DNA of 64,000 bases from Candidatus Nealsonbacteria bacterium (GCA_047456305.1 CP179888.1:445307-509306); one strand, 5' to 3'; shown: positions 7,846 through 61,700, numbered from the stretch's first letter. Program-made: numbers and translations. Notes: generated by a model not told the origin, from the letters alone.

Positions 7846-7937
7846 TAGATACCCGAGCCGCAGGCGAAGAAAACAGAGTTTTCTTCTTTACCTTCGCTTT
7901 CATAAATGAAAGCTCGGTGGATGATGAAGGTATCTAA
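7846..7937. repeat. composite box-hairpin repeat (small-element family) closed by a 9-bp inverted repeat
   Basis: TTAGATACC...GGTATCTAA flank ACCCGAGCCGCAGGCGAAG and ACCTTCGCT-TTCAtaaaTGAA-AGCTCGG boxes shared with the copies at 54874, 40571 and 49914. Confidence 0.6.
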
Positions 7938-8864: not shown

Positions 8865-10157
8865 ATGATAGAAAAAAAAGAAAATAGAAGTTCATCAAGT
8901 TCCTCATCAAGCTCAAGTTCCAGTGGTTCAATTCAAGAATTAAAAGAAGAATTAAAGAGAACCAAAGAAGAATTAGAAAGAATCAAAATTGAAAAAAAAG
9001 GCAAAGAGGTTGGAGGAGTGCTTTCTAAAAAATTCCACAAACCTATAAGACAGATAGCTAAAACAGGAAAGATGACCTATCGGGAAAAAGAGAAAACGAA
9101 GGAGGGCAAGCTCTACAAAGAGAGAAAATTCTCAATAAGCAGAGAGAAGAGTTTGACTTTGAGCTTTCCTGTTTTTAATTTAGAAAAACTGAAATTAAAA
9201 AATCCTAATTTAGATGTTGATGGACAGCGAGCTATATTTTGGATAACCGGACAAATGAAAAGGCAAAAAACCATAGCACCAGTTTTTACAAAAGAAGAAT
9301 TTTTGAGGGGGCTTGGTTTCTCTAAAAAACAGATAAGGCAGGGCGGTTATTATTCTGACAAAGCGTCTGACATTCTTCAAAACTTGTGGGACAACGAATA
9401 TGTTTTTGAAGATGAAAAAGGAATGATTCTACAATTAAGAATTCTGAAAGCTATAAAAAGACCAAAAGGAAAAGGCAAGAAAGGGGACTTGATAAAGTTA
9501 GGGGTGAATGATTTAATCGTCCCTCAACTGGTGATAGCTGGGACTTTAGACCCGAAGCTCTTGGCAAAAAGTCCCTATGTTTCTTATCCCGCCAAAATCT
9601 ATCAGGACAGAAGTTTGAGAGATGACGAGTTCAAGTTTTTGATTTATCTGTGCGGGATACAGGGGTTTGACAAATTCTATTCCATAAAAGCGACAAGCAT
9701 TCTAAAAGAAGCCGGCTGTTCAACAAAAACAGAAGCAAGAAAAAAAGACCGCAGGGAAATGCTTAATCGTCTTTTAGAGAAGGCAAAGGCAAAGGAACTC
9801 ATACAGGGTTGGAAGGTTGAAAAGGAGGATCAGGGTTTTGAAGAATGGAGGGTTGTATTGAGCTTGCCACCGCGAAAGAGAAAGCAACTGCCACAATCCG
9901 AGCTAAACAAAGAAGCGAATGAGCTTATAGAGGAAATCTTAAGGTGGGTTAAGCAGTGGGAAAAGATTGAGGGATATGAAATAACTTTTTCTGAAAAAGA
10001 AAGAAGGAAGTTCTTGGGCGATTGCGTAAAAAGATTAGGCATAGAAAGGGTGGAAGAGCTGTTTGACATAGAGAGGCAATCGCTTTACCCCAACGCTCTA
10101 CAATTTTTAACACAAGAGCTGTCTGCTGAATTACAGATAAAAGGATTGGATTATTGA
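8865..10157 (+). CDS. candidate replication initiator (Rep) of the element
   Basis: 430-aa orphan ORF with poly-Ser and coiled-coil N-terminus; its stop overlaps the first of five iterons. No family recognised by eye. Confidence 0.4.
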   Translation: MIEKKENRSSSSSSSSSSSSGSIQELKEELKRTKEELERIKIEKKGKEVGGVLSKKFHKPIRQIAKTGKMTYREKEKTKEGKLYKERKFSISREKSLTLSFPVFNLEKLKLKNPNLDVDGQRAIFWITGQMKRQKTIAPVFTKEEFLRGLGFSKKQIRQGGYYSDKASDILQNLWDNEYVFEDEKGMILQLRILKAIKRPKGKGKKGDLIKLGVNDLIVPQLVIAGTLDPKLLAKSPYVSYPAKIYQDRSLRDDEFKFLIYLCGIQGFDKFYSIKATSILKEAGCSTKTEARKKDRREMLNRLLEKAKAKELIQGWKVEKEDQGFEEWRVVLSLPPRKRKQLPQSELNKEANELIEEILRWVKQWEKIEGYEITFSEKERRKFLGDCVKRLGIERVEELFDIERQSLYPNALQFLTQELSAELQIKGLDY

Positions 10158-10331
10158 TGATTTGGTCAGGAATTGTTGATGATCTGGTCAAAATTATTGA
10201 TGATTTGGTCAAAATTATTGATGATTTGGTCAGGATTTTTGCCTCCTGATTTTTGGAAAAAATAAGGATATTTTCCAGATTTTGTTCTTAAAAATAGTGG
10301 AAATATGCCAAAATTACTGATGATTTGGTCA
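10153..10331 (+). repeat. iteron array (5 direct copies of RTTGATGATYTGGTCA)
   Basis: copies at 10153, 10175, 10196, 10217 (21-22 bp spacing) and 10316; followed by AT-rich DNA with AAGTATAAA and GAACGAACG duplications. Confidence 0.8.
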
Positions 10332-21279: not shown

Positions 21280-21451
21280 TTCGCTCGGCAGGACATTCGG
21301 GGATAAACCGCTCGGCAACGAAGTTTTCAAAGTACCGACCCTCAAAATCCCAGCGAGATTTTGGGGTCTGCGTTCTCGGCTCGTCGTCCGCCTTCGGCGG
21401 AACCATGCCGACGAGCCTCCGAAAGCTACTTTGAAACTTGTTACCTCGCTT
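21280..21451 (+). repeat. family A structured repeat, copy 1
   Basis: CGCTCGGCA boxes, outer stem AAGTTTTCAAAGTA/TACTTTGAAACTT, hairpin with CCCAGCGA loop, nested hairpin then ACCATGCC, ends TTACCTCGCT. Confidence 0.75.
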
Positions 21452-21492
21452 ATTATTCGTATATTCGTACTTATTCGTAATTCGTAGGGTTT

Positions 21493-24934: not shown

Positions 24935-27109
24935 ATGCCTCGTTTATATCCAATTGAAAAGGTCAAAGATATAGGAATTATTGCTCATATTGATGCCGGA
25001 AAAACAACCGTGACAGAACGGGTGCTTTTTTATACCGGAATTTCCCATAAAATTGGAGAAGTTCACGATGGCCAAGCTATTATGGATTGGATGGAGCAAG
25101 AAAGAGAAAGAGGGATTACTATTACCGCTGCTGCCACCACCTGTTTTTGGACTCCACAAGATTTGGACGCCACCCTCCCGCCACCCCGAAAAAAAGATTA
25201 CAACCCACCCACCGCGTCCTCCCATTCGCCTGTCGGCGAACGGGTCCCTAATGAATATAGAATAAATATCATTGATACTCCAGGCCATATTGATTTTACT
25301 GCCGAAGTTCAAAGGTCTCTAAGGGTCTTAGATGGAGCAGTTGTGGTTTTTGATGGGGTGGCGGGAGTAGAGCCTCAGTCAGAAACTGTTTGGCGTCAGG
25401 CTGATACCTTTAAAATTCCCAGAATCTGCTTTATAAACAAAATGGACAGAATAGGAGCCTCTTTTGAAAAAAGTTTAGAATCTATTTTGGAAAAATTATC
25501 TCCGAATGCTCTAGCCCTTCAGCTACCAATTGGCGAAGAAGATAAATTTGAAGGAGTGATTGATCTTTTAAATCTGAAAGCTCTAAAATTTGAAGGTGAT
25601 TTCGGTCAAATAGTAAAAGAAGAAGATATTCCCGCTAATTTATTGGAAAAGGCAAAGGAATGGCGGGCAAAATTAGTTGAGAAAATTGTTGCTGAAGATG
25701 AAAGACTCTTGGAGAAATTTTTAGCTAAAAAAGAAGTTTCTATTGATGAGCTAAGAAAAGTTTTAAGAAAAGCTGTTTTAGACTACAAACTCGTTCCAGT
25801 TTTTTGCGGAGCAGCTCTCAGAAATATAGGAATCCAACCCCTCTTAGATGGAATTTGTTATTATCTTCCCAGTCCTTTAAATCTTCCACCGGTTAAGGGA
25901 ATTGATCCTAAAGATGGAAAAGAAATTGAAAGAAAACCGGAGGATTCAGAAAAATTTTCTGCCTTGGTCTTTAAAGTTGCGGATGACCCTTATGTTGGAA
26001 CCCTAACCTATTTTCGAGTTTATTCTGGTTTCTTAACAAGAGGCTCTTATTTATTAAACTCAACAACAGGAGAGAAAGAAAGGATTGGCCGGATTTTAAG
26101 AATGCATGCTTCGGAAAGAGAAGAGGTAAAAGAAATTTTCACCGGGGATATTGCTGCCACTATAGGGCTGAAAAAAACGTCCACCGGACATACTCTCTGT
26201 GAGATTAATAATCCAATTGTTCTTGAAAAAATTAGTTTTCCTGAACCGGTTATCTCTATACGCATTGAGCCAAAAACCCGGGCTGACCAGGAAAAGATGA
26301 GTTTGGCTCTAAGAAGATTGTCAGAAGAAGACCCCACTTTTAAAACCAAAAGTGATTTAGAAACTGGAGAGACGATTATTTCTGGAATGGGAGAATTGCA
26401 CCTTGAGATTATTGTTGATCGTATGAAAAGAGAATTTAAAGTGGAAGGCCTGGTGGGAAAACCTCAGGTAGCTTATAAGGAGACTATCAAACAGACTGCA
26501 GAGGCTGAAGGAAAATATATTAGACAATCGGGAGGACGAGGTCAATATGGTCATGTTTGGCTAAAGGTTTTACCAAAAAATAGGGGAGAGGGATTCGAAT
26601 TTATTGATGAAATCAAAGGCGGAATTATTCCCAAAGAATTTATTCCGGCAGTAGGAAAGGGAGTAAAGGAAGCTATAGAGAAAGGAATTCTGGCTGGATA
26701 TCCGATGGTTGATATGGAAGTTAGGCTGTATGATGGTTCTTTCCATGATGTAGATTCTTCAGAGGTCGCTTTTAAAATTGCAGGTTCTATAGCTCTTCAA
26801 GAAGCTTCCAAGAGAGCAAAACCAGTGATCCTCGAGCCAATTATGCGGCTTGAGGTTATTGTTCCTGAGGAATTTTTTGGTGATACTATCGGAGATTTAT
26901 CAGCCAGAAGGGGAAAAATTGAAGAGACTAAAGATAGATTAAATCTAAAAGTTATTGATGTTATTGTTCCTTTAGCTGAAATGTTTGGTTATGCCACTGC
27001 CCTACGTTCCTTGACTGAAGGCAGAGGAACCTTTACAATGGAATTTAATTACTACGAGGAAGTACCGGCAAATATTGCTCAGGAAATTATCGAAGGGCGA
27101 AGAAGATAA
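24935..27109 (+). CDS. fusA: elongation factor G, with a ~30-aa GC-rich insertion in the G domain
   Basis: [26 protein letters not shown]. Start taken at the ATG at 24935. Confidence 0.95.
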
Positions 27110-27190
27110 ATCTTCTTCTTGACCCTTCGCTAACGCTCGGGTGGCCGAAGAAGATAAATCTTCTTTTTTTCCCTTCGCTATCGCTCGGGA
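27091..27190 (+). repeat. two tandem small hairpin-box elements overlapping the fusA stop
   Basis: CGAAGGG-c-GAAGAAGA-taaa-TCTTCTTC-ttga-CCCTTCGCTAACGCTCGGG, then GAAGAAGAtaaaTCTTCTT...CCCTTCGCTATCGCTCGGGAG. The fusA TAA lies in the first hairpin loop. Confidence 0.8.
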
Positions 27191-27228
27191 GAAAGAGGAG
27201 ATGATTTTTATCCACAATTAGAGAACCA

Positions 27229-34756: not shown

Positions 34757-34926
34757 CAGCTTTTGGAAGATAATTTTTGGTACACGCAAATTTTTCCAGC
34801 GAAAATTTGCTCCTACTCGCGAATTGCTCGCCGCGAAGCGGCGAGACCAAGCCAATTCGCTGCGGACTCCACCCACCCGCCACCCTCCTAAGAGGCACCT
34901 GTCCCAAAAATTACTTCCCTCGCTTA
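34757..34926 (+). repeat. family A structured repeat, copy 3 (between rplN and rplX), carrying an extra CCACCC-rich ~33-nt insert
   Basis: about 90 percent identical by eye to copy 5, except for CTCCACCCACCCGCCACCCTCCTAAGAGGCACC at 34868-34900. Confidence 0.8.
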
Positions 34927-34987
34927 GAGTTTTTTTATTCGTATATTCTTATTAATTCTTAATTTACAAAGAGATGAAAATAAAAAT

Positions 34988-36090: not shown

Positions 36091-36600
36091 ATGACTGACC
36101 CTATCACCGATATGCTCAATCGAATAAGAAATGCTCAAGCTGTTTTAAAAGAAACGGTTGATATTCCTTTTTCTAATTTAAAATATGAAATTTCTAAAAT
36201 TTTAGAAAAGGAAAATTTTATTGAGAAGGTCGAAAAAAAAGGAAGGAAAAGTAAAAAATTCATTAAAATTAGCTTAAAATACTTGCCCTCCCGAGCGATA
36301 GCGAAGGGGAAAGAAGAAAGCTTGCTTTCTTCGCCCTCCCGAGCGACAGCGAAAGGGGAAGAAAAGGATAAATCCTCTTCGCCCTTCCAAGTTTTGCAAG
36401 ATAAAATAAAGGTGGCAGCAATTTCTGGTTTAAAAAGAATTTCCAAACCAGGCCAAAGGATTTACCTTTCAGCTAAAAAAATGCGGAGAGTGAGAGGGGG
36501 TTATGGAATAGCAATAATCTCAACACCAAAAGGATTGATGACTGATAAAAAAGCGAGGAGGCAGAAATTGGGAGGGGAAGTTTTATGTGAAGTCTGGTAA
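36091..36600 (+). CDS. rpsH: 30S ribosomal protein S8, with a ~35-aa repeat-derived insertion
   Basis: DPI.DML.RIRNA at the N-terminus and GGE.LC.VW at the C-terminus; 169 aa against ~130 aa typical. Confidence 0.9.
   Translation: MTDPITDMLNRIRNAQAVLKETVDIPFSNLKYEISKILEKENFIEKVEKKGRKSKKFIKISLKYLPSRAIAKGKEESLLSSPSRATAKGEEKDKSSSPFQVLQDKIKVAAISGLKRISKPGQRIYLSAKKMRRVRGGYGIAIISTPKGLMTDKKARRQKLGGEVLCEVW
36286..36388 (+). repeat. two tandem 48-nt small hairpin-box elements inside rpsH, in frame
   Basis: CCCTCCCGAGCGATAGCGAAGGGGAAAGAAGAAAGCTTGCTTTCTTCG followed by CCCTCCCGAGCGACAGCGAAAGGGGAAGAAAAGGATAAATCCTCTTCG. Confidence 0.85.
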
Positions 36601-37172: not shown

Positions 37173-37215
37173 ACCCGAGCGTAGCGAAGGGTGAAGAAGA
37201 GGATTTATCCTCTTT
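37173..37215 (+). repeat. small hairpin-box element (between rplF and rplR)
   Basis: ACCCGAGCGTAGCGAAGGGTGAAGAAGAGGATttatCCTCTT. Confidence 0.75.
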
Positions 37216-37222
37216 GACTAAA

Positions 37223-37642
37223 ATGTTAAAAAAACAAGAAAAACGCTATAGACGTCATAAAAGAGTAAGGGCCAAAATTTTTGGTAGGGCTTCTCGACCA
37301 CGACTTTGCGTTTTCAGGTCTCCAAAACATATTTACGCTCAGTTAATTGATGATGAAAAAGGAATAACCTTGGTGTCAGCTTGTGACCTGGAATTAGTCC
37401 CTCAACCTAGGATTAAAAGAGAAGCCAAGGCAAGAGCCGGAATCAGGCGGAAAAAAAACCAAAAAGAGACAAAAATTTTTAAGGGAAAGATTGCTTTAGC
37501 TTCCGAGGTCGGAAAGTTAATTGCTAAAAAAGCCCTGAAAAAGAAAATTGAAAAAGTGGTCTTTGACAGGGGAGGGTATACTTTTCATGGAAGAGTTAAG
37601 GCCCTATCAGAAGGGGCAAAGAAAGGAGGTTTAAAATTTTAA
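37223..37642 (+). CDS. rplR: 50S ribosomal protein L18
   Basis: RHKRVR.KI.G...RPRL.VFRS.KHIYAQ; start taken at the ATG at 37223. Confidence 0.9.
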
Positions 37643-40573: not shown

Positions 40574-40668
40574 TCGAGAGAAGAAGCTTGCTTCTTCGAA
40601 CCCATCTGCGCTAGTCGATGAAGCTAAAGCTTCATCTCCATCTTCGCTTCCACAAGTGGAAGCTCGAT
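40571..40668 (+). repeat. three consecutive box-hairpin units (between adk and map)
   Basis: TCGAGAGAAGAAGCttgcTTCTTCGAACCC; TCGATGAAGCtaaaGCTTCATC; CTTCGC-TTCCAC-aa-GTGGAA-GCTCGA. Confidence 0.6.
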
Positions 40669-40670
40669 AA

Positions 40671-41435
40671 ATGATTACAATAAAATCAAAAGAGGAAATC
40701 GCTATAATTGCAGAAGGTGGTAAAATCCTGGCAAAAATTATGGCTGAGATAGAAAGAGAAATTCAGCCAGGAATTAAAACTCGCGAATTAGACAGGCTTG
40801 CTGAAAGCCTGATTTTAAAATCTGGAGGAAAATGTTCTTTTAAAGGATATCAAAAATTTCCGGCTTGTTTATGTACATCAATTAATGAAGAAATTGTTCA
40901 CACAGCTCCCTCAGACCGGCAATTAAAGGAAGGCGATATAATTTCTCTTGATTTGGGGATTTGTTTTAAAGGTTTTCATACCGATATGGCGGTTACCCTT
41001 CCGGTTACGAAACCCGGCAATGTAGGGAAAATTGACCCAGAGGCTTTAAGATTAATTCGGGTAACAAAAAAATCTCTAAAAAGAGGAATTAAAAAAGTTC
41101 ACCCGGGAAATACTTTTGGTGATATTGGAAATACTATTCAAAGATATGTTGAGAGCCAGGGATTCAATGTTGTCCGTGATCTTTGCGGTCATGGTATAGG
41201 AAAAGAGATTCACGAGGAACCCCAAATACTTAATTACGGAAAAAGACACACAGGTCCTAAAATTCAAGAGGGGATGATTTTTTGTATTGAACCGATGGTA
41301 ACAATAGGGGATTGGAAAATAAAAAAAAGCAAGGATGGTTACGGATTTGAAACAGCCGATGGTTCCTTGTCTTGCCATTTTGAACATACAATGGCTGTAA
41401 CAAAAGATAGTTGTCAGATCTTGACAGAAATTTAA
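40671..41435 (+). CDS. map: methionine aminopeptidase, type I
   Basis: operon position after adk; size and overall type I MAP pattern (..HG...D..L..GDI...D) by eye. Confidence 0.95.
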   Translation: MITIKSKEEIAIIAEGGKILAKIMAEIEREIQPGIKTRELDRLAESLILKSGGKCSFKGYQKFPACLCTSINEEIVHTAPSDRQLKEGDIISLDLGICFKGFHTDMAVTLPVTKPGNVGKIDPEALRLIRVTKKSLKRGIKKVHPGNTFGDIGNTIQRYVESQGFNVVRDLCGHGIGKEIHEEPQILNYGKRHTGPKIQEGMIFCIEPMVTIGDWKIKKSKDGYGFETADGSLSCHFEHTMAVTKDSCQILTEI

Positions 41436-41556: not shown

Positions 41557-42306
41557 ATGTACTTATCCGTCATCGTTCCTGCCTATAATGAGGAAAGGAG
41601 GTTGCCAAAAACTTTGCGAGAAATCGACAAATATTTAAGGGCAAAAACTTACGATTACGAAATTATTGTTGTTTCCGATGGTTCAAAAGACAGAACAGTT
41701 GAAGTTGTTAGGAATTTAATGGCCGAAATTAAGAATCTGAAAATCCTTGATTTTAAAGAAAATCAGGGTAAAGGTTTTGGTGTCCGCCAGGGAATGCTGG
41801 AGGCAAAAGGGGATTTTCGGCTTTTTACCGATGCCGACAATTCCACTTCGGTCGACCAAGTTGAAAAAATGTGGCCAGAATTTAAGAAGGGCTATGATAT
41901 TGTTATTGGGTCAAGAGATGTGAAGGGAGCGGTTTTAGATCCGCCCCAATCCTGGCTTCATGGATTTTTGGCTGACATTTTTAAGTTATTACGAAAAATA
42001 ATTGCTGGCCTTTGGGAACTTGAAGATACTCAATGTGGTTTTAAATGCTTTACTAAAAAAGCAGCTGAAAGCATTTTTCCCAAGTGTAAAATTAATCGTT
42101 TTGCTTTTGACCCAGAATTTTTAATTGTAGCTAAAAAATTAAGATATAAAATCAAAGAAATTCCAATTTATTGGAAAAATGACCCAGAAAGTAAAGTAAA
42201 GTTCAAAAGCATGGTAAAAATGGGAATTGATTTGTTAAAAATAAGGTGGAATTTAATAACTGAAAAGTATGATGAAACTAAAGTTTCATCAACAGCTTCG
42301 TTTTAA
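41557..42306 (+). CDS. family-2 glycosyltransferase (polyprenol-phosphate glycosyltransferase-like)
   Basis: SVIVPAYNEE, VVSDGSKD and DADNS motifs. Confidence 0.8.
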   Translation: MYLSVIVPAYNEERRLPKTLREIDKYLRAKTYDYEIIVVSDGSKDRTVEVVRNLMAEIKNLKILDFKENQGKGFGVRQGMLEAKGDFRLFTDADNSTSVDQVEKMWPEFKKGYDIVIGSRDVKGAVLDPPQSWLHGFLADIFKLLRKIIAGLWELEDTQCGFKCFTKKAAESIFPKCKINRFAFDPEFLIVAKKLRYKIKEIPIYWKNDPESKVKFKSMVKMGIDLLKIRWNLITEKYDETKVSSTASF

Positions 42307-42324
42307 TAAATTAAAACTCGCTAT

Positions 42325-43362
42325 ATGAATAAGAAAATTAATCAGAAGAAATTTCCTTCTGAATTACGGTTTGATTTGACTTCAAAAGATTGGGTTGTCA
42401 TTGCTACAGGTAGAGCAAAAAGGCCGGAAACTTTCAAGAGAGAAAAGCGGAAAAAAGAGGAATCCCCCAAAGCTCTATGTCCTTTTTGTCAAATTTCCAC
42501 TCAAGAAGCTCCTGTTTTAATTTTTTCTCATGGAAAAAAAATACCTTTAGAAAGGGGAATTCCTAAAGATTGGACTACTATTTCTATTCCTAATAAATTT
42601 CCAGCCTTTCTCCCTTCTAAAAAATTAAATCCAAGAGTTGAAGGAAAATTTTATAAAACAATAAATGCGGTAGGTTTCCATGAAGTAGTAATTACCAGAG
42701 ACCATAAAAAATCAATGGGTCAATTTTCAATTAGTCAGGTTAAAGAAGTACTTGATGTTTACCAGGAAAGATATTTAGAATTAATGAAAGAAAAATTTGT
42801 TAATTACGTTTCTATTTTTCATAACCATGGAGTTGAAGCTGGAGCTTCGATGTCGCATCCTCACTCCCAAATTATAACTACCCCTTTAATTGATGTTGAC
42901 CTTAAAAAAGCTCTCTTTAATTCAAGAAAATATTATAGAGCCCATCGAAAATGTATTTATTGTCAGATGAATAATTGGGAAAAGAAAAATAAAAAAAGAG
43001 TAGTTTTTGAAAATAAAGATTTTTTAGTAATTTGTCCCTTTGCTTCAAAAGCTGCCTTTGAAGTTATTATTTCTCCCCAAAAACATTTAGCTTATTTTGA
43101 GAAAATAACCGAAAAAGAAAAAGAGCTTTTATCTGAAGCTTTCCAGATAGCCTTAAACAAACTTTACAAAGCCCTGAATGATCCGGCTTATAATTTCTAT
43201 TTGCATACTTCCCCTTGCGATGGGAAAAAATATCCCTTTTACCACTGGCACTGGACAATATTACCAAAAACCGCTACCTGGGCTGGTTTTGAAATCGGCA
43301 CCAGAATGGAAATTTCTACCATTGAACCTAAAAAAGCTGCTGAATATTTAAGAAAGCAATAA
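42325..43362 (+). CDS. galactose-1-phosphate uridylyltransferase-like (GalT/HIT superfamily)
   Basis: CPFC zinc motif; HPHSQI (HxHxQ) active site. Confidence 0.7.
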   Translation: MNKKINQKKFPSELRFDLTSKDWVVIATGRAKRPETFKREKRKKEESPKALCPFCQISTQEAPVLIFSHGKKIPLERGIPKDWTTISIPNKFPAFLPSKKLNPRVEGKFYKTINAVGFHEVVITRDHKKSMGQFSISQVKEVLDVYQERYLELMKEKFVNYVSIFHNHGVEAGASMSHPHSQIITTPLIDVDLKKALFNSRKYYRAHRKCIYCQMNNWEKKNKKRVVFENKDFLVICPFASKAAFEVIISPQKHLAYFEKITEKEKELLSEAFQIALNKLYKALNDPAYNFYLHTSPCDGKKYPFYHWHWTILPKTATWAGFEIGTRMEISTIEPKKAAEYLRKQ

Positions 43363-43364
43363 AT

Positions 43365-43558
43365 ATTGCTCGGCAATGAAGTGTTAAAGTACCGATAGTT
43401 CAAATCCCAGCGCGAAGAGGATAAATTCTCTTCTTCCCCCTTCGCTATCGCTCGGGAGCGAGATTTGACTATCTACATTCTCGTCCCGTCGCTCCGACTT
43501 CGTCGGAGACCGTGCCGACGGGACTGCGAAAGTTACTTTAAAACTTATTGCCTCGCTT
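43365..43558 (+). repeat. family A structured repeat, copy 4, with a small hairpin-box element nested in its first loop
   Basis: TTGCTCGGCAA...TTGCCTCGCT. CCCAGCG[43413-43460 insert]CGAGATTTG; GTCCCGTCG/CGACGGGAC around CTCCGAC-ttcg-GTCGGAG then ACCGTGCC. Confidence 0.8.
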
Positions 43559-43565
43559 GATTATA

Positions 43566-44387: not shown

Positions 44388-44554
44388 ACCCACATCGGAA
44401 GGGGGTCGGGGAAACCCTTCGGTTTCCCCGTGTAGGAAAATATTAAAAACCGAGGGTTTTTAAAGAGCGAGCCCGAAGCGAGGCTGAGCTTGTCGAAGCC
44501 GAGCGCCAGCCGTAAGGCTGGATGAGGGCGAGCGACTAACTTAGTAATACCACT
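44388..44554 (+). repeat. family B structured element, copy 1, ending exactly at the ATG of 44555
   Basis: shares ACCCAyATCGGAAGGGGGTCGGGGAAACCyTTCGGTTTCCCCGTGTAGGAAAATA, GAGGGTTTyTTAA(A)GAGCGAGCCCGAAG and GAGGGCGAGCGACTAACTTAGTAAyACCACT-ATG with 50574-50760. Confidence 0.8.
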
Positions 44555-45082: not shown

Positions 45083-46870
45083 ATGAATTCAAAAAGGCTT
45101 CGTCAGAAATTTTTAGAGTTTTTTGAAAAAAGAGGGCATAAAGTAGTGCCCTCAAGTTCGTTATTATCAACTGACCCCAGTGTTTTGTTTACCAGTGCTG
45201 GAATGCAGCAATTCAAAGTCTATTATTTAGGCGAGAAATCACCATATGGGTTGGATGTTGTTTCCTGTCAGAAATGTTTCAGGACCTCTGATATTGAGGA
45301 GGTGGGAAATGAAAAACATTTAACTTTTCTTGAAATGCTGGGCAATTTTTCTTTTGGGGGATATTTTAAAAAAGAAGCGATAAATTGGGCTTATCAATTT
45401 CTTTTTGAAGAATTAAAATTGCCAATAGAAGAAGCTATTTTCACGGTTTTTAAGGGTAACAAAGATGTCCCAGAAGATAAAGAATCGATTGAAATTTGGA
45501 AAAAATTAGGAATTCCCGAAAATAAAATAAAAAAATGTGGAAGAGCAGATAATTTTTGGGGGCCGACCGGCGAAGAAGGTCCTTGCGGCCCAACAACCGA
45601 AATTCATCTTCGAGGCATTGAGGTTTGGAATTTGGTTTTTAATGAATATTATCAAGACTACAACCCGCCCACCACCCACTCACCACCACGAAACAAAAAA
45701 TTAACTCCTTTAAAACAAAAAGGAGTAGATACTGGAATGGGTCTGGAAAGATTAGCTATGGTTGTTCAAAATAAACCCAGCGTCTTCGAGACCGATTTGT
45801 TTGAGCCTATTATCGGCGAGCTCCAAAAATACACGGGTCCCACCCCTGCAAATTTAAAAGCAGAAAGGATTATTGCTGACCACATTAAGGGTTCGATTTT
45901 TTTGATAGCAGAGGGGATTTTTCCTTCTAATGTGGAAGAAGGTTATGTTTTAAGAAGGATTCTACGAAGAGCGATAAGATTTGGGAAACTTTTAGACTAC
46001 AACCCACCCACCACCCAATATAGTTTTTTAATTCCTTTGGCTCAAAAAGTTATTGAAATTTATCAAGACATTTATCCCGAAGTAAAATCCCGAGAAGCTG
46101 ATATCTTAACTGTTATTCAAAAAGAAGGAGAGAAATTTGAAAAAACTTTGGAAAAAGGACTCAAAGAGTTTGGGAAAATTGCAGCCAAAGGCGATATTAA
46201 GGGAGATGAAGCCTTTCATCTTTATGATACTTACGGCTTTCCATTGGAGTTGACCGGAGAGTTGGCTAAAGAAAAGGGGCTGAAAGTCGATGTTAAAGGA
46301 TTCGAGGAATCCTTTAGAAAACACCAAGAAATTTCAAGAGCAGGTGTAGAAAAAAAATTTGGCGGAGTAGGGAAGAAAGTAACTTACGAATCAACTAAGC
46401 TTCATACAGCCACCCATTTACTTCACTCAGCTTTGAGAAAGATTTTCGGTGAACATGTTAGACAAATGGGATCTGACATTACTCTTCAGCGCCTTCGCTT
46501 TGATTTTTCTCATCCACAAAAAATGACAATTGAGGAGATAAAAAAAGTTGAAGATTTAGTTAATCAAAAAATTAGAGAAAATTTGGAGGTAAGAAAGGAA
46601 GAGATGTCATTGAAAGAAGCTCTAAATTCAGGAGCCTTATCTTTTTTTAAAGAGAAATACCCGGAAAAAGTAACTGTCTATTCAATAACCGAGCTTCTGA
46701 AGGAAGCGAAGGTGAAGAAGAGGACGAAGTCCTCTTCGCCTAAAGCTTTTTCAAAAGAAATTTGTGCCGGCCCCCATGTTAAAAAGACATCCGAATTAGG
46801 CAGTTTTAAAATTATAAAGGAAGAATCTTCTGGAGCAGGCGTGCGAAGAATTCGAGCTATTTTAAGATAA
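45083..46870 (+). CDS. alaS: alanyl-tRNA synthetase, short form (no C-Ala domain), with three small in-frame insertions
   Basis: F..F..RGH..V.SS.L; DTGMGLERL; HTATHLLH; CAGPHV. Confidence 0.9.
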   Translation: MNSKRLRQKFLEFFEKRGHKVVPSSSLLSTDPSVLFTSAGMQQFKVYYLGEKSPYGLDVVSCQKCFRTSDIEEVGNEKHLTFLEMLGNFSFGGYFKKEAINWAYQFLFEELKLPIEEAIFTVFKGNKDVPEDKESIEIWKKLGIPENKIKKCGRADNFWGPTGEEGPCGPTTEIHLRGIEVWNLVFNEYYQDYNPPTTHSPPRNKKLTPLKQKGVDTGMGLERLAMVVQNKPSVFETDLFEPIIGELQKYTGPTPANLKAERIIADHIKGSIFLIAEGIFPSNVEEGYVLRRILRRAIRFGKLLDYNPPTTQYSFLIPLAQKVIEIYQDIYPEVKSREADILTVIQKEGEKFEKTLEKGLKEFGKIAAKGDIKGDEAFHLYDTYGFPLELTGELAKEKGLKVDVKGFEESFRKHQEISRAGVEKKFGGVGKKVTYESTKLHTATHLLHSALRKIFGEHVRQMGSDITLQRLRFDFSHPQKMTIEEIKKVEDLVNQKIRENLEVRKEEMSLKEALNSGALSFFKEKYPEKVTVYSITELLKEAKVKKRTKSSSPKAFSKEICAGPHVKKTSELGSFKIIKEESSGAGVRRIRAILR

Positions 46871-49868: not shown

Positions 49869-49968
49869 TCAAAGAAGATAAATCTTCTTCTTCACTCTTC
49901 GTTGCGGCTCGGGTAGTCAAAGAAGATAAATCTTCTTTTCCATCTTCGCTTTAATAAATTAAAGCTCA
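49866..49968 (+). repeat. two tandem small hairpin-box units starting at the infA stop codon
   Basis: TAGTCAAAGAAGAtaaaTCTTCTTCTTCACTCTTCGTTGCGGCTCGGG, then TAGTCAAAGAAGAtaaaTCTTCTTTTCCATCTTCGCT-TTAAtaaaTTAA-AGCTCA. Confidence 0.8.
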
Positions 49969-49972
49969 ATAA

Positions 49973-50086
49973 ATGAAGGTTCGCTCATCAGTTAAAAAAA
50001 TTTGTAAAAATTGTAAAATAGTTCGGCGAAAAGGCCGACTCTATGTTATCTGTAAAAATCCCAAGCATAAACAACGCCAAGGATAA
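49973..50086 (+). CDS. rpmJ: 50S ribosomal protein L36
   Basis: hand-translated [37 protein letters not shown]; below the ORF-track cutoff. Confidence 0.9.
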
Positions 50087-50573: not shown

Positions 50574-50760
50574 ACCCATATCGGAAGGGGGTCGGGGAAA
50601 CCTTTCGGTTTCCCCGTGTAGGAAAATAAGAGTGAGTTGCTAAAAGCAACGAACGACGTAAGAAAACGAGGGTTTCTTAAGAGCGAGCCCGAAGGTCGAC
50701 GAAGGCGACCGCTGGAGCAAAGCTCCAGAGAGGGCGAGCGACTAACTTAGTAACACCACT
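50574..50760 (+). repeat. family B structured element, copy 2, ending exactly at the rpsK ATG
   Basis: see 44388-44554. Variable helices differ but stay paired: GTCG-acgaagg-CGAC and CTGGAGC-aaa-GCTCCAG, versus GGCT...AGCC and CCAGCC-gtaa-GGCTGG. Confidence 0.8.
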
Positions 50761-54710: not shown

Positions 54711-54873
54711 GCTCAGGAAGTTAATTTTTGGTACACGCGAATTTTTCCAGCGAAAATTCGCTGCTACTCGCGAATTGCTCCGACTTCGTGGGAGACCAAG
54801 CCAATTCGCTGCGGATTGTCCCAAAAATTACTTCCCTCGCTCCGAAATTTACTCTGAAACTTGTTACCTCGCT
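54711..54873 (+). repeat. family A structured repeat, copy 5, plus a truncated 3' remnant of another copy
   Basis: AATTTTTGGTACA/TGTCCCAAAAATT, GCGAATTTT-tccagcg-AAAATTCGC, GCGAATTG..ACCAAGCCAATTCGC. The following CCGAAATTTACTCTGAAACTTGTTACCTCGCT matches the 3' end of copy 1. Confidence 0.8.
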
Positions 54874-54925
54874 TACCCGAGCCGCAGGCGAAGGGTGAAG
54901 AAAAGGACGAAGTCCTCTTTGCCTA
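54874..54925 (+). repeat. small hairpin-box element
   Basis: ACCCGAGCCGCAGGCGAAGGGTGAAGAAAAGGACgaaGTCCTCTTTGCC. Confidence 0.75.
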
Positions 54926-54936
54926 GTTGATAATTT

Positions 54937-54997
54937 ATGCTCAAAGAATTTTCAATTCATTTCGATCTTCAATAAATTTTCAATTTATTTCGATGTT
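54937..54997 (+). repeat. 61-nt leader repeat, copy 1 (includes the ATG of the Cas4-like gene)
   Basis: identical to 61090-61150 except for one base. Confidence 0.85.
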
Positions 54998-55685
54998 AAA
55001 AGAGTTAATTGATAAATTTTATTTAGACAGAAAAAAAGATAAAGAACAGCAGCATTTTTATATTAGCGAGGCAGGGAAGTGTCCCCGACAGATTTTTTTT
55101 AAATTTAAAAACGCCCCCCGGAAAGAAATGGAGGCAAATATTTTAAGGTTATTTGACCATGGCGACCACATGCACCAGCTTATTATGAAGCCTCTTTTAA
55201 GCACAAGGGAGGTACGAGTGGTATCAGCTGAAGTGGAAATTCCTCCCCAAGAGCTTGTGAAAGGGAGGGCGGATGCAGTAATTAGTGATGGTAAAGAGCT
55301 TTATGTTTTAGATATTAAAAGTATGAATAGTATGATTTTTAGAAATTTAACTTCTCCCAAAGAAGAAAACATTAATCAAATTCAACTCTACCTTCATTAT
55401 TTTAAAATAGCAAAGGGGATACTTCTTTACGTTGATAAAGATAAATTGAATTTGAAAGAATTCGTGATTGATTACAATAAGACATTAGCTGAGAAAATTT
55501 TAAGCGATTTAGCTTACCTAAAAAAACAAATTGATTCCAATATTATTCCTCCGAGAATCCCTGATTATTCAGATAACTGGCAGTGTTCATACTGCCAATT
55601 TAGAGAACTTTGCGATATAGGGGTTCCAGGCGAAATGAACTGGGAAGATTTTAAGAAAAAAATCGAAGCCCAAAATACAAAATAA
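54993..55685 (+). CDS. Cas4-like PD-(D/E)xK nuclease with Fe-S cysteines
   Basis: GKCPRQ near the N-terminus, D...DIK core, C-terminal CSYCQFRELC. Start taken at the ATG at 54993. Confidence 0.6.
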   Translation: MLKELIDKFYLDRKKDKEQQHFYISEAGKCPRQIFFKFKNAPRKEMEANILRLFDHGDHMHQLIMKPLLSTREVRVVSAEVEIPPQELVKGRADAVISDGKELYVLDIKSMNSMIFRNLTSPKEENINQIQLYLHYFKIAKGILLYVDKDKLNLKEFVIDYNKTLAEKILSDLAYLKKQIDSNIIPPRIPDYSDNWQCSYCQFRELCDIGVPGEMNWEDFKKKIEAQNTK

Positions 55686-60196: not shown

Positions 60197-61087
60197 ATGA
60201 TCATTGGTCACCAAAAACAATGGCAATTTTTGAGAAAATCGGCAGAAATCGGAAGAACTTCCCATGCTTATTTATTTGTCGGTCAAGCCCAATTAGGAAA
60301 AAAAACTTTAGCTATTGAATTTGTTGAATGGCTTTTTAATGAGAATATCCAGGCAAAACAACATCCTGATTTTATTTTTGTCGAGCCCCAAAAAGGGGAA
60401 ATCCAAATTTCTCAGATTAGAGAATTTATCAGAAGGTTATCTTTTAAGCCATTGCTATCTCCTTTCAAAGCAGCAATTATAGATCAGGCCCATTGTATGA
60501 ATCAGGAAGCTCAGAACTGTCTTTTAAAAACCCTTGAAGAGCCAAAAGGCAGAGCTATTTTAATTTTAATAACTGAATATCCAGAAATGTTATTTCCGAC
60601 CATTCTCTCACGATGCGAAATCATAAAATTCTATCCAGTAAGAAAAATAGAAATTAAAAAATATTTAGAAAGTCAAGGAATTCCCAACAAAGAGATTGAA
60701 GAATTGGTTCGCTCTTCTATGGGAAGACCGGGAGTAGTCATAGATTTTATTTCTGACCCTCAGAAATTAGAAAATCAAAGAAAAACGATAAAAGATTTAA
60801 TTAAATTTTCAAATTCAGAATTATCCACTCGTTTTCAATATGTCAAAGATTTGTCTCAAGACCCTCAGAACTTAAGAAAAATTTTAGATATCTGGTTGAG
60901 ATACTTTAGGAATGTTTTGCTGGCTCGGAGTACAGACAAAAAGCCTTCAAACAGTCTTCAATTTAATAATTACTCTTCCTTTAGAATAAGAAAAATTCTT
61001 AAACTTATTCAAAGAATAAATTTTTTAATTGAAAATACCAATGTTAATTCAAGACTGGCTTTGGAAATATTAATGATAGAGTTATAA
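60197..61087 (+). CDS. holB: DNA polymerase III delta-prime subunit
   Basis: HAYLF.G....GK..LA; LLKTLEEP; SRC. Confidence 0.8.
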   Translation: MIIGHQKQWQFLRKSAEIGRTSHAYLFVGQAQLGKKTLAIEFVEWLFNENIQAKQHPDFIFVEPQKGEIQISQIREFIRRLSFKPLLSPFKAAIIDQAHCMNQEAQNCLLKTLEEPKGRAILILITEYPEMLFPTILSRCEIIKFYPVRKIEIKKYLESQGIPNKEIEELVRSSMGRPGVVIDFISDPQKLENQRKTIKDLIKFSNSELSTRFQYVKDLSQDPQNLRKILDIWLRYFRNVLLARSTDKKPSNSLQFNNYSSFRIRKILKLIQRINFLIENTNVNSRLALEILMIEL

Positions 61088-61089
61088 TA

Positions 61090-61150
61090 ATGCTCAATGA
61101 ATTTTCAATTCATTTCGATCTTCAATAAATTTTCAATTTATTTCGATGTT
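61090..61150 (+). repeat. 61-nt leader repeat, copy 2 (includes the frr ATG)
   Basis: see 54937-54997. Confidence 0.85.
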
Positions 61151-61700
61151 TAAAGAAATTATTAACAAAATCAAACCCGAACTGGACAAAACCATTAATT
61201 TTTTAGATAGGGAATTAGCTAAAATTCGAACTGGACGGGTTTCAGCTTCCTTGGTTGAAGATTTAATGGTTGATTACTACGGAAAAAAAACTCCCTTAAA
61301 ACAAGTATCTTCAATTTCAACTCCTGGTCCTCGAACTCTTTGCATTCAGCCCTGGGACCATTCGATTCTTCTAAATATTGAAAAAGCCATCTTGGAATCA
61401 AATTTGGGGATAAATCCAATTGTTGAGAAAGATTTAATTAGACTTTCTTTGCCTCCTCTAAGTGAAGAATATCGAAAAAATCTTCTTCGAGTTTTAAATG
61501 AAAAATTAGAAGCAGCTCGTTTGACTCTCAGACGCTGGAGAGAGGAAGCCTGGCGCCAGATTCAAGAGGGGTTTAGGCAGGGAAAAATTCGAGAAGATGA
61601 TAAATTTCGGGCAAAAGACGAACTCCAAGAATTGATTGATGAATATAATCAAAAGATTAAAGAGATGGAGGAGAGAAAAAAGAAGGAGATAATGAAGTAA
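61146..61700 (+). CDS. frr: ribosome recycling factor
   Basis: R.GR..P..L....V.YYG...PL.Q...I; 184 aa. Confidence 0.9.
   Translation: MFKEIINKIKPELDKTINFLDRELAKIRTGRVSASLVEDLMVDYYGKKTPLKQVSSISTPGPRTLCIQPWDHSILLNIEKAILESNLGINPIVEKDLIRLSLPPLSEEYRKNLLRVLNEKLEAARLTLRRWREEAWRQIQEGFRQGKIREDDKFRAKDELQELIDEYNQKIKEMEERKKKEIMK

Follow-up and report, generated by a model that had tools for sequence, protein, structure and literature searches.

A 48-nucleotide two-hairpin repeat, probably mobile, lies in tandem and in frame within the ribosomal protein S8 gene of a Candidatus Nealsonbacteria genome

The closest described precedent for repeat DNA that survives inside essential genes is provided by the Rickettsia palindromic elements (RPEs). 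According to the summary of Ogata et al. (2000) given in PMC10969869, these are dispersed palindromic repeats that occur in spacers and, unusually often, in frame in unrelated, often essential genes of a reduced genome, where they add a conserved peptide and the host protein is not destroyed. [quoted passage not shown] That selfish palindromic DNA colonises essential genes in frame has so far been treated as near-unique to Rickettsia. Here, a corresponding case is described for the Candidate Phyla Radiation (CPR), namely a 48-nt unit that is present in two tandem copies in rpsH, the gene for ribosomal protein S8, in a stretch of 64,000 nt from Candidatus Nealsonbacteria (GCA_047456305.1, CP179888.1:445307-509306; "the window" in the following). 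The genomes of CPR bacteria are among the smallest and most streamlined known, and "junk" inside a ribosomal protein is therefore unexpected. In our view the insert probably represents two head-to-tail copies of a mobile, probably selfish element, which has colonised rpsH and is read through by the ribosome.

The window contains the standard S10-spc ribosomal protein cluster on the plus strand, and an S8 protein identical to that of the window is on record for a metagenome-assembled genome named "Candidatus Nealsonbacteria", in agreement with the original prediction of a CPR-type organism. The features of the host gene and its insert are the following:

36091..36600, plus strand: rpsH, ribosomal protein S8, host gene of the insert, 169 aa (Pfam PF00410; Foldseek S8)
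36285..36332, plus strand: repeat unit 1, 48 nt (Tandem Repeats Finder; repeat search, direct family D1 and inverted pair I5; box search)
36333..36380, plus strand: repeat unit 2, 48 nt (Tandem Repeats Finder; repeat search)
36381..36403, plus strand: partial, decayed third copy GCCCTTCCAAGTTTTGCAAGAT, encoding PFQVLQD (repeat family D2, three copies at 48-nt spacing; DNA alignment)

The original prediction had described an S8 of 169 aa with two consecutive in-frame units of 48 nt, and the list of open reading frames (ORFs) and Tandem Repeats Finder (36285-36385, period 48, 2.1 copies, 79% matches) agree with it in coordinates and frame. The match of the Pfam family Ribosomal_S8 (PF00410, E 5.4e-43) to the 169-aa ORF is split into two stretches by the insert, and the excess peptide that had been given, ...LKYLPSRAIAKGKEESLLSSPSRATAKGEEKDKSSSPFQ..., is exactly found in the translation. 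Unit 1 comprises the box hairpin CCCGAGCGATAGCGAAGGG and the hairpin GAAGAAAGC-TT-GCTTTCTTC and encodes PSRAIAKGKEESLLSS, while unit 2 comprises the box CCCGAGCGACAGCGAAAGG and the hairpin GAAG-AAA-AGGA-TAAA-TCCT-CTTC and encodes PSRATAKGEEKDKSSS. The two units are 90% identical across their first 31 nt and differ at about 20% of the positions over their whole length. The insert has a GC content of 0.44-0.50, compared to 0.23-0.39 in the flanking parts of rpsH, and short direct repeats flank the units (TTGCCCTCC... / TTCGCCCTTCC). The decayed third copy is common to the alleles of relatives with no or one unit, and it is probably an older insertion. The predicted tryptic peptides within the insert are AIAKGKEESLLSSPSR, ATAKGEEK, and DKSSSPFQVLQDK.

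The anatomy of the unit was derived from 53 distinct copies from the window and related loci, 45 of which were aligned (alignment A2). The unit consists of three parts. The first is a 19-nt box hairpin, x-CCC/GA-GC[GNNA]GC-GA-A/GGG-x', in which three C-G pairs and two inner pairs hardly vary, covariation is seen at the closing pair x-x' (AU 17, UG 17, UA 8, unpaired 3), and one copy has a compensatory CGC...GCG change. After a spacer of 3-5 nt follows the second part, an 8-bp hairpin, GAAGAAGA-TTTA-TCTTCTTC, with double-sided changes at five of the eight pairs, e.g., GAAGAGGAT/ATCCTCTTC, GAAGAAAGC/GCTTTCTTC, and GAAGAACGA/TCGTTCTTC. The third part is the 3' end GCCCT. Overall, 91.9% of the alignment cells are paired, compared to 46-62% when the partners are slid by 1-3 columns, and 58 double-sided changes were observed versus 21 +/- 3 in shuffles (0/500). 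Both hairpins are thus supported by covariation in the alignment. Directly 5' of the CGAAGGG arm lies the conserved motif N-T/C-A-G, and in most copies the 10 nt located 5' of the box are similar to the last 10 nt of the unit itself (TCTTCGCCCT). Flank and 3' end also co-vary within copies (5.84 of 10 matches versus 5.16 +/- 0.16 in shuffles, 0/5000); this flank could equally be part of the unit itself. Terminal inverted repeats are not visible in the alignment. As the length of the unit is a multiple of three and four of its six frames are open, an insertion adds 16 hydrophilic residues per unit and does not break the gene.

The loop of hairpin 2 in unit 2 (36363-36372) is TAAA in the window and encodes Lys (...EEKDKSSS). 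The near-identical alleles P0121 and P0122 have Leu at this residue (...EEKDLSSS), which implies TTTA in the DNA. The loop is therefore flipped between otherwise identical alleles, as in palindromes. A further relative, L030, likewise has a GATAAATC copy.

It had been predicted that the same hairpin-box element is present in intergenic DNA in the opposite orientation, and this holds: complementarity between the arms 27092-27191 and 36288-36387 amounts to 80% across 100 nt, and the intergenic array is therefore the element of rpsH in opposite orientation. When up to three mismatches were allowed, the 21-nt box CTCCCGAGCGATAGCGAAGGG was found at six sites in the window (plus strand: 36288, 36336; minus strand: 27123, 27171, 43438, 46893), compared to none in 100 shuffles. 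The copies outside of rpsH are listed below, and the last four add to those that had been noticed originally:

27098..27189, minus strand: two tandem units directly 3' of the fusA stop codon (27107-27109); period 48, 1.9 copies, 90% matches; inverted pair I1
37173..37217, plus strand: single unit in the rplF-rplR spacer, one base short in the box loop (inverted pair I3; sequence)
43413..43460, minus strand: single unit of exactly 48 nt, flanked by the 4-nt direct repeat AGCG; no counterpart in the otherwise collinear relative L001
46846..46913 (about), minus strand: unit with an enlarged second hairpin, overlapping the 3' end of the 595-aa ORF 45083..46870
49870..49916, minus strand: diverged unit with the box variant CCCGAGCCGCAACGAAGAGTG (repeat families D1, D2; sequence)

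The fusA stop codon falls within the first hairpin arm of the array at 27098-27189. ORF 45083..46870 belongs to the tRNA-synt_2c/tRNA_SAD family at the orthologous position in the relatives L001, L004, and L007 (alanyl-tRNA synthetase-like). Next to the diverged unit, a related unit with a longer box stem is found at 49917-49976. The start that is listed for rplR, a TTG at 37214, falls within the copy at 37173-37217, and the ATG at 37223 is more likely to be the start.

Comparison with close relatives revealed that the copies differ between genomes. The window and L001 are about 95% identical over 20 kb, yet their copies of the element lie at different places. At 43413-43460 the window has exactly 48 nt more than L001, which has the empty site CCCAGCG-AGATTT (the hyphen marks the insertion point) with the 4-nt direct repeat AGCG. 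Likewise, the window has about 95 nt more than L001 3' of the fusA stop codon, with the end of fusA being alike in both. The native end of fusA, ...GAAGGGCGAAGAAGATAA (encoding ...EGRRR and the stop), is near-identical to the CGAAGGG-C-GAAGAAGATAAA arm of the element, also in L001, which is free of the element at this site (window 27092-27109; L001 940-956; L007 about 1210-1227), and this suggests that the element may have inserted at a microhomology. L001 and L007 have a copy 3' of the triose-phosphate isomerase gene, where the window has a different repeat. L007 has additional copies in the S19-L22 and L6-L18 spacers, the latter in opposite orientation to the copy at 37173-37217 of the window. 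These differences amount to a presence/absence polymorphism, and the element is mobile or, at the minimum, highly dynamic.

The same dynamics is observed within S8 itself. The rpsH DNA was aligned for six forms, the window and the relatives L001, L004, L007, L038, and L039. S8 genes that are 86-97% identical outside of the insert contain two, one or no units, always in frame, so that the proteins form a graded series of 129, 137-142, 152/153, and 169/170 aa:

169/170 aa: two units
152/153 aa: one unit
137-141 aa: no unit, or box only
139 aa: LPSEALAKGG-type
129 aa (more distant relatives): no loop, ...LKYDNKIPAISG

Both backbone subclades (KISLKY... and KIILKY...) comprise alleles with no unit or the box only, with one unit, and with two units. 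P0121 and P0122 (169 aa) have the same two units as the window, deviate from it by 2-3 residues, and stem from separate NCBI and Logan assemblies. P0002 (169 aa, second backbone, two units) is encoded on contigs of three different ENA samples, P0124 (170 aa) on 22 contigs, the one-unit allele P0010 on 13 contigs, and the zero-unit allele P0009 on 11 contigs; in total, near-identical alleles of 169/170 aa are found on dozens of independently assembled contigs. The one-unit alleles of the window's subclade have either the hairpin type of unit 1 (P0005, EESLLSS) or that of unit 2 (P0004, EEKDLSSS), and the box-only alleles of 140-141 aa (L038: ...GCGAAAGGAGAAGATAAAATAAAG) fit deletions between GAAGAT direct repeats. 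L001, which has 97% nucleotide identity to the window's rpsH outside of the insert, lacks full units and reads TACTTGCCTTCTTCCCGAGTTTTGCAAG at the insert site, where the window has TACTTGCCCT, 96 nt, and TCCAAGTTTTGCAAG. The exact empty allele that is predicted from this (137 aa, LKYLPSQALEDK) exists (P0013).

An S8 segment shared by orthologs and unrelated to the repeat had been named as the observation that would contradict a repeat origin. For the two units this idea fails: they are not shared, they are absent in L001, and the loop is absent in the 129-aa relatives. A nuance is that the clade does share a remnant of 8-10 aa. The "empty" alleles retain this segment (LPSQALED / PFQVLQD / LPSEALAKGG), and its coding DNA is still box-like; in L039, CCCTCCGAAGCCTTGGCAAAGGGG matches the box at 18 of 24 positions (hand count on the DNA alignment). 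P0017 (139 aa) is set apart from P0021 (129 aa) by the 10-residue block LPAEALAKEG and four substitutions. The remnant itself has the appearance of a decayed box copy of greater age, and our reading of these alignments is that the site may have been hit repeatedly, with an old decayed copy common to the clade and younger units that come and go. The S8 proteins of other CPR bacteria have unrelated inserts at the same domain junction, namely P0023 (160 aa), P0051 (161 aa), P0030/P0040 (142 aa), and P0109 (146 aa), e.g., LPGSEASLLRGADKRSVEGPLRHEEKSEASETRQG and LPSQILPSKTWEGE; this junction is a general hot spot of insertion.

When one genome of each bacterial and archaeal species was scanned for the exact pattern, the element was detected in 28 stretches from 14 assemblies, all of them assigned by title to CPR/Patescibacteria (Nealsonbacteria, Parcubacteria group, Ca. 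Paceibacter, Minisyncoccales, and several labelled as uncultured Saccharibacteria). Of the 40 copies at these loci, 27 are located within open frames that comprise at least 180 codons. For ten frames the host gene was confirmed by Pfam, i.e., UvrB, DegT-type aminotransferases, PurD, IF-2, MurF, pyruvate/indolepyruvate oxidoreductase (POR), DNA polymerase III delta (HolA), FtsZ, and S9; in UvrB, PurD, and IF-2, where the positions are comparable, the element is located in between the domains matched by Pfam. Altogether, the same DNA unit is found in spacers in both orientations and in at least 15 unrelated proteins. Among the genes of the ribosomal cluster, in-frame copies are confined to rpsH, both in the window and in the four relatives nearest to it. 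The original prediction had drawn an analogy to the RPEs, and the many unrelated genes of related CPR genomes with in-frame copies make it stronger than had been claimed. The copies inside the open frames use the six frames very unequally:

Antisense phase 0: 17 copies, ...EEDKSSSPFA(I/V/T)ARE...
Sense phase 1 (as in S8): 5 copies, ...PSRA(I/T)AKG.EEDLSSS...
Sense phase 2: 2 copies, hydrophobic or basic
Antisense phase 2: 2 copies, hydrophobic or basic
Sense phase 0: 1 copy, TAG in most box variants
Antisense phase 1: 0 copies, TAA in the loop

Such a skew is what would be left by selection against unreadable or disruptive insertions. Other in-frame tandem peptides were also observed in related CPR genomes: GDELRSSSRFAKARV is present twice in FtsZ (L034:6779-7999, minus strand), LPSGARGKKRRSFFA three times in a 496-aa protein (L034:999-2486, minus strand), and SPMSPAKRDGIKKRTQFS twice in a 304-aa open frame (L020:4953-5864, minus strand). 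Therefore, at least one further repeat family behaves likewise.

Taken as a mechanism, an insertion in frame would add 16 hydrophilic residues per unit and leave the gene readable, and S8 would carry 32 residues as a disordered loop at its domain junction, with both domains intact. The copy number, which changes quickly (no, one or two units among near-identical S8 genes), could be altered by two routes. Either a new unit inserts beside a resident one, as the likeness of the 3' end TCTTCGCCCT to the 5' flank of most copies suggests, or unequal recombination or slippage takes place between units. The element would be selfish rather than adaptive. For its mobilisation, single-strand transposition of the IS200/IS605/RAYT type (RAYT, REP-associated tyrosine transposase; REP, repetitive extragenic palindrome) is a lead, not a result; it is suggested by analogy, because the element has hairpins, no terminal inverted repeats, a short motif 5' of the stem, and a target that resembles its own end.

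Several points weigh against the interpretation as a mobile element that is read through. First, the zero-unit allele of L001 (TTGCCTTCTTCCCGAGTTTTG) is not an exact empty site, but is 3 nt and two substitutions off the window sequence minus 96 nt, and thus it may be an imprecise deletion product and not the ancestral state. Second, the frame bias could result from the choice of target sites and not from selection on the peptide, because GAA-GAA-GAT runs encode Glu-Glu-Asp in surface loops. Third, part of the covariation may have been inherited via two or three subfamilies and may not reflect many independent events, and the folding energy of the insert is ordinary for its composition (z -0.91 as RNA, -0.88 as DNA); as folding energy is uninformative for purine/pyrimidine-biased sequences, the structural claim rests on covariation. 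Fourth, translation of the insert is presumed from DNA, and the main argument for it is indirect, namely that at least 13 length variants of S8 (137 to 170 aa) are all in frame and stop-free. Fifth, no transposase or other mobilising gene turned up in the 64-kb window and the 8-kb fragments of the relatives, for which a family scan of all ORFs was not run.

Of the alternative explanations, the one that survives best assumes that a single unit entered rpsH only once, and that slippage or unequal recombination within the gene, rather than repeated insertion, gave rise to the second unit and to the variation in copy number, i.e., that the array is a coding minisatellite. We regard this as possible, but as less than probable. 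It is in accordance with the exact head-to-tail arrangement with a 48-nt period, with the one-unit alleles that retain either unit type, as expected from loss in a two-unit ancestor, and with the deletions between GAAGAT direct repeats that the box-only alleles suggest. However, the units are only about 79% alike and have different hairpin 2 sequences, and therefore a duplication in place would have to be old. In addition, the resemblance and co-variation of the 5' flank and the 3' end of the element also fit insertion next to a resident copy.

[quoted passage not shown] In an AlphaFold model of the 169-aa S8, built from an alignment of 84 sequences, helices and strands were predicted at H4-17, E22-26, H29-40, E44-52, and E55-62, with the C-terminal domain starting at about residue 107. 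The predicted local distance difference test score (pLDDT) is about 90 in both domains and below 50 at residues 73-104. The core of the model matches solved bacterial S8 chains with target-normalised template modelling (TM) scores of 0.90-0.96 (best Foldseek matches). In the alignment to Thermus S8, residues 1-70 correspond to 2-71 and residues 110-169 to 79-138, leaving about 40 residues unmatched, so that the insert is, in the model, exactly at the junction of the two domains. The length of this junction varies naturally among bacteria, and Thermus S8 has extra residues at exactly this point. The 32 extra residues most likely form a disordered, flexible, hydrophilic loop that would leave both RNA-binding domains intact and would be solvent-exposed in the 30S subunit.

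The next alternative is a functional, lineage-specific expansion of S8 that is retained for rRNA binding or ribosome stability, with the similarity to intergenic repeats being secondary. The extra residues of Thermus, the existence of an S8 of 168 aa in Aquifex (PDB 3rf2), the 8-10-aa segment that is widespread at the S8 site in the clade, and a short helix predicted at residues 67-75 speak in favor of an expansion. We nevertheless consider it unlikely, because the copy number varies from zero to two among S8 genes that are 86-97% identical, the same DNA unit is present in spacers and unrelated proteins, and the insert has a low pLDDT without any similar PDB chain (a search with the insert peptide yielded only a chance match, E 0.61). 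Furthermore, 202 columns are required in the alignment to 3rf2 by Foldseek (169 and 165 residues), and thus the two inserts do not superpose.

It is very improbable that the insert is present in the DNA and missing from mature S8, either cut from the mRNA or bypassed by the ribosome as in T4 gene 60 or the mitochondrial "byp" elements. The units share a superficial likeness with bypass elements, as they are hairpin-forming, richer in GC than their surroundings, and flanked by short direct repeats. Bypass elements are recognised by matching take-off and landing codons and by a stop codon or a disrupted frame within the stretch that is skipped. In contrast, the rpsH insert is stop-free and in frame in every allele, also at its 5' edge, and the copies in other genes favor open hydrophilic frames, with none in the antisense frame that has the TAA in the loop. 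Such a concentration in certain frames is expected only if the element is read, which counts against bypassing.

Least credible is a tandem duplication that was created by the assembler through collapse or expansion of a repeat, which had been raised as a caveat: repeats are a classic source of misassembly, the exact S8 of the window is on record on one contig only, and an exact-sequence look-up of encoding contigs came back empty, but about one in five positions differs between the units, which therefore are not an assembler's duplication, the array of about 100 nt is shorter than a typical sequencing read, and the two-unit alleles in independent assemblies described above, i.e., P0121 and P0122, those in three ENA samples, and P0124, leave misassembly effectively excluded at the level of assemblies.

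Known classes of sequences were also considered. An intrinsic terminator was rejected, as none of the copies between 27000 and 46990 was called terminator-like, and hairpin 2 is followed by CCCTTCGC without a T-run. A CRISPR array was ruled out, because the units abut without spacers, and an intron or intein was ruled out as the segment is too small, in frame, and devoid of the required motifs. At the gathering threshold, Rfam 15 yielded a single tRNA for the whole window; for 36230-36430 the best sub-threshold match had 19.8 bits versus a threshold of 60, and nothing was found for the insert at E up to 10. Searches of phage records and of IMG/VR viral contigs were without a match, and thus there was no sign of a viral vector.

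The window is rich in additional repeats. A related family, in which the first hairpin is alike and the box loop is replaced by a longer stem (e.g., CTTCGCTTCCACAAGTGGAAGCTCG), is found at 7862-7924, 40612-40674, 42266-42328, and 49914-49976. All of its copies end with ...AAATGA, and in 40612-40674 and 42266-42328 the ATG is the start of the next ORF (40671 and 42325, respectively). The rplN-rplX spacer has a GC-rich insert of about 200 nt (34765-34960), the first 65 nt of which recur at 54716-54780 with 94% identity; the spacer is 232 nt long in the window, 236 nt in L001, 5 nt in L004, and 62 nt in L007, and its insert looks like another insertion-type repeat. A 55-nt repeat with the hairpin GGGGTCGGGGAAACCCTTCGGTTTCCCCG is present at 44388-44442 and 50574-50628 (96% identical). 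As the region 44389-44552 is 83% like the S3-L16 spacer of L001 (L001 6860-7024), this second repeat family also moves between spacers. The 36-nt repeat CTCCGAAAGCTACTTTGAAACTTGTTACCTCGCTTA occurs at 21417-21452, 43524-43559, and 54840-54875 (83-92% identical), each time just 5' of an ORF start (21493, 43548, and 54927), and the region 21309-21455 is 81% like L001 16972-17120; it may be a shared leader/promoter module or another mobile spacer element. Moreover, a 21-nt tandem repeat, ATTATTGATGATTTGGTCAAA, at 10150-10232 (3.9 copies, 90% matches) straddles the end of ORF 8865..10157, and an 80-nt repeat with an internal 28-nt tandem is found at 54937-55016 and 61090-61169 (91% identical). The first copy of the latter starts 10 nt into ORF 54927..55685, while the second covers the 3' end of ORF 60197..61087 together with the start of ORF 61146..61700.

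With a slight preference over the contrary, we assume that the 48-nt unit represents a new two-hairpin mobile family across Nealsonbacteria/Parcubacteria-type CPR bacteria. It would reside mainly in frame in genes, including those for S8, S9, IF-2, FtsZ, and UvrB, would form exact tandem arrays by self-adjacent insertion, would possibly be mobilised without a dedicated transposase, and would represent a second, independent, and more extreme RPE-like case as well as a source of rapid length polymorphism in essential proteins. Full-text literature searches did not yield any paper linking CPR bacteria to REP, MITE or RPE-type elements or to repeat-derived inserts in ribosomal proteins. The S8 proteins with zero, one, and two units are a natural allelic series for the question how much disordered sequence a ribosomal protein tolerates. 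Where conserved markers differ in protein length or have "CPR-specific regions", repeat DNA can be the source, and because S8 is a standard marker protein, such repeat-derived length differences matter for phylogenomics and annotation. Furthermore, a compact element of 48 nt with defined hairpins is well suited for working out a possibly new mobilisation mechanism.

Four known systems are instructive for comparison. The S8 of Thermus thermophilus exemplifies that extra residues are tolerated at the two-domain junction. However, the Thermus loop and the segment in Aquifex aeolicus S8 (3rf2) are fixed in their lineages, while the insert described here is strain-variable repeat DNA and predicted to be disordered, in contrast to the Aquifex segment, which, going by the title of Menichelli et al. 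(2012; cited in PMC4176348), is a folded subdomain. MITEs that give rise to in-frame fusions, like ERIC, Correia, and those of Anabaena sp. PCC 7120 (PMC10969869), are likewise small and non-autonomous, exhibit presence/absence polymorphism and short flanking direct repeats, and occasionally insert in frame. The 48-nt element differs from them in that it is far shorter, has no evident terminal inverted repeats or parent insertion sequence, and has a far higher intragenic in-frame fraction (27/40); a 4-nt direct repeat was found at one clean indel, and the covariation of flank and end could equally reflect the unit itself.

REP sequences and the bacterial interspersed mosaic elements (BIMEs) built from them, which are mobilised by RAYTs, are also short hairpin repeats (20-50 nt) that have a conserved short motif in front (here N-T/C-A-G 5' of CGAAGGG), are numerous, are biased in strand or orientation, and lack terminal inverted repeats. 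An extragenic location is part of the definition of REPs, which commonly form inverted pairs, and RAYTs are Y1 transposases similar to those of IS200/IS605. In contrast, the copies of the 48-nt element are mostly intragenic in the surveyed relatives, with two in rpsH, and form direct tandem arrays, so that the element does not fit the extragenic definition of REPs and REPINs.

The closest likeness is that to the RPEs. As in Rickettsia, the repeat is dispersed in spacers (27098-27189, 37173-37217, and 43413-43460 of the window) and in frame in rpsH and other, often essential genes of a reduced genome, and it adds a conserved peptide while frame and fold of the host protein are retained, as seen for all S8 alleles and from the core TM scores. 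The differences concern the unit, which has 48 nt, two small hairpins, and exact head-to-tail arrays here, compared to about 100-150 bp for RPEs, the reading of the element in both orientations (PSRA(I/T)AKG..EEDLSSS versus EEDKSSSPFA.ARE), and the host, CPR/Patescibacteria versus Alphaproteobacteria. By length and host the element does not belong to RPE-1 to RPE-10, from which it is set apart by description and not by sequence comparison. Functionally, by analogy, it would be the RPE situation, that is, selfish palindromic DNA whose survival in essential genes is due to read-through into a surface peptide that is tolerated.

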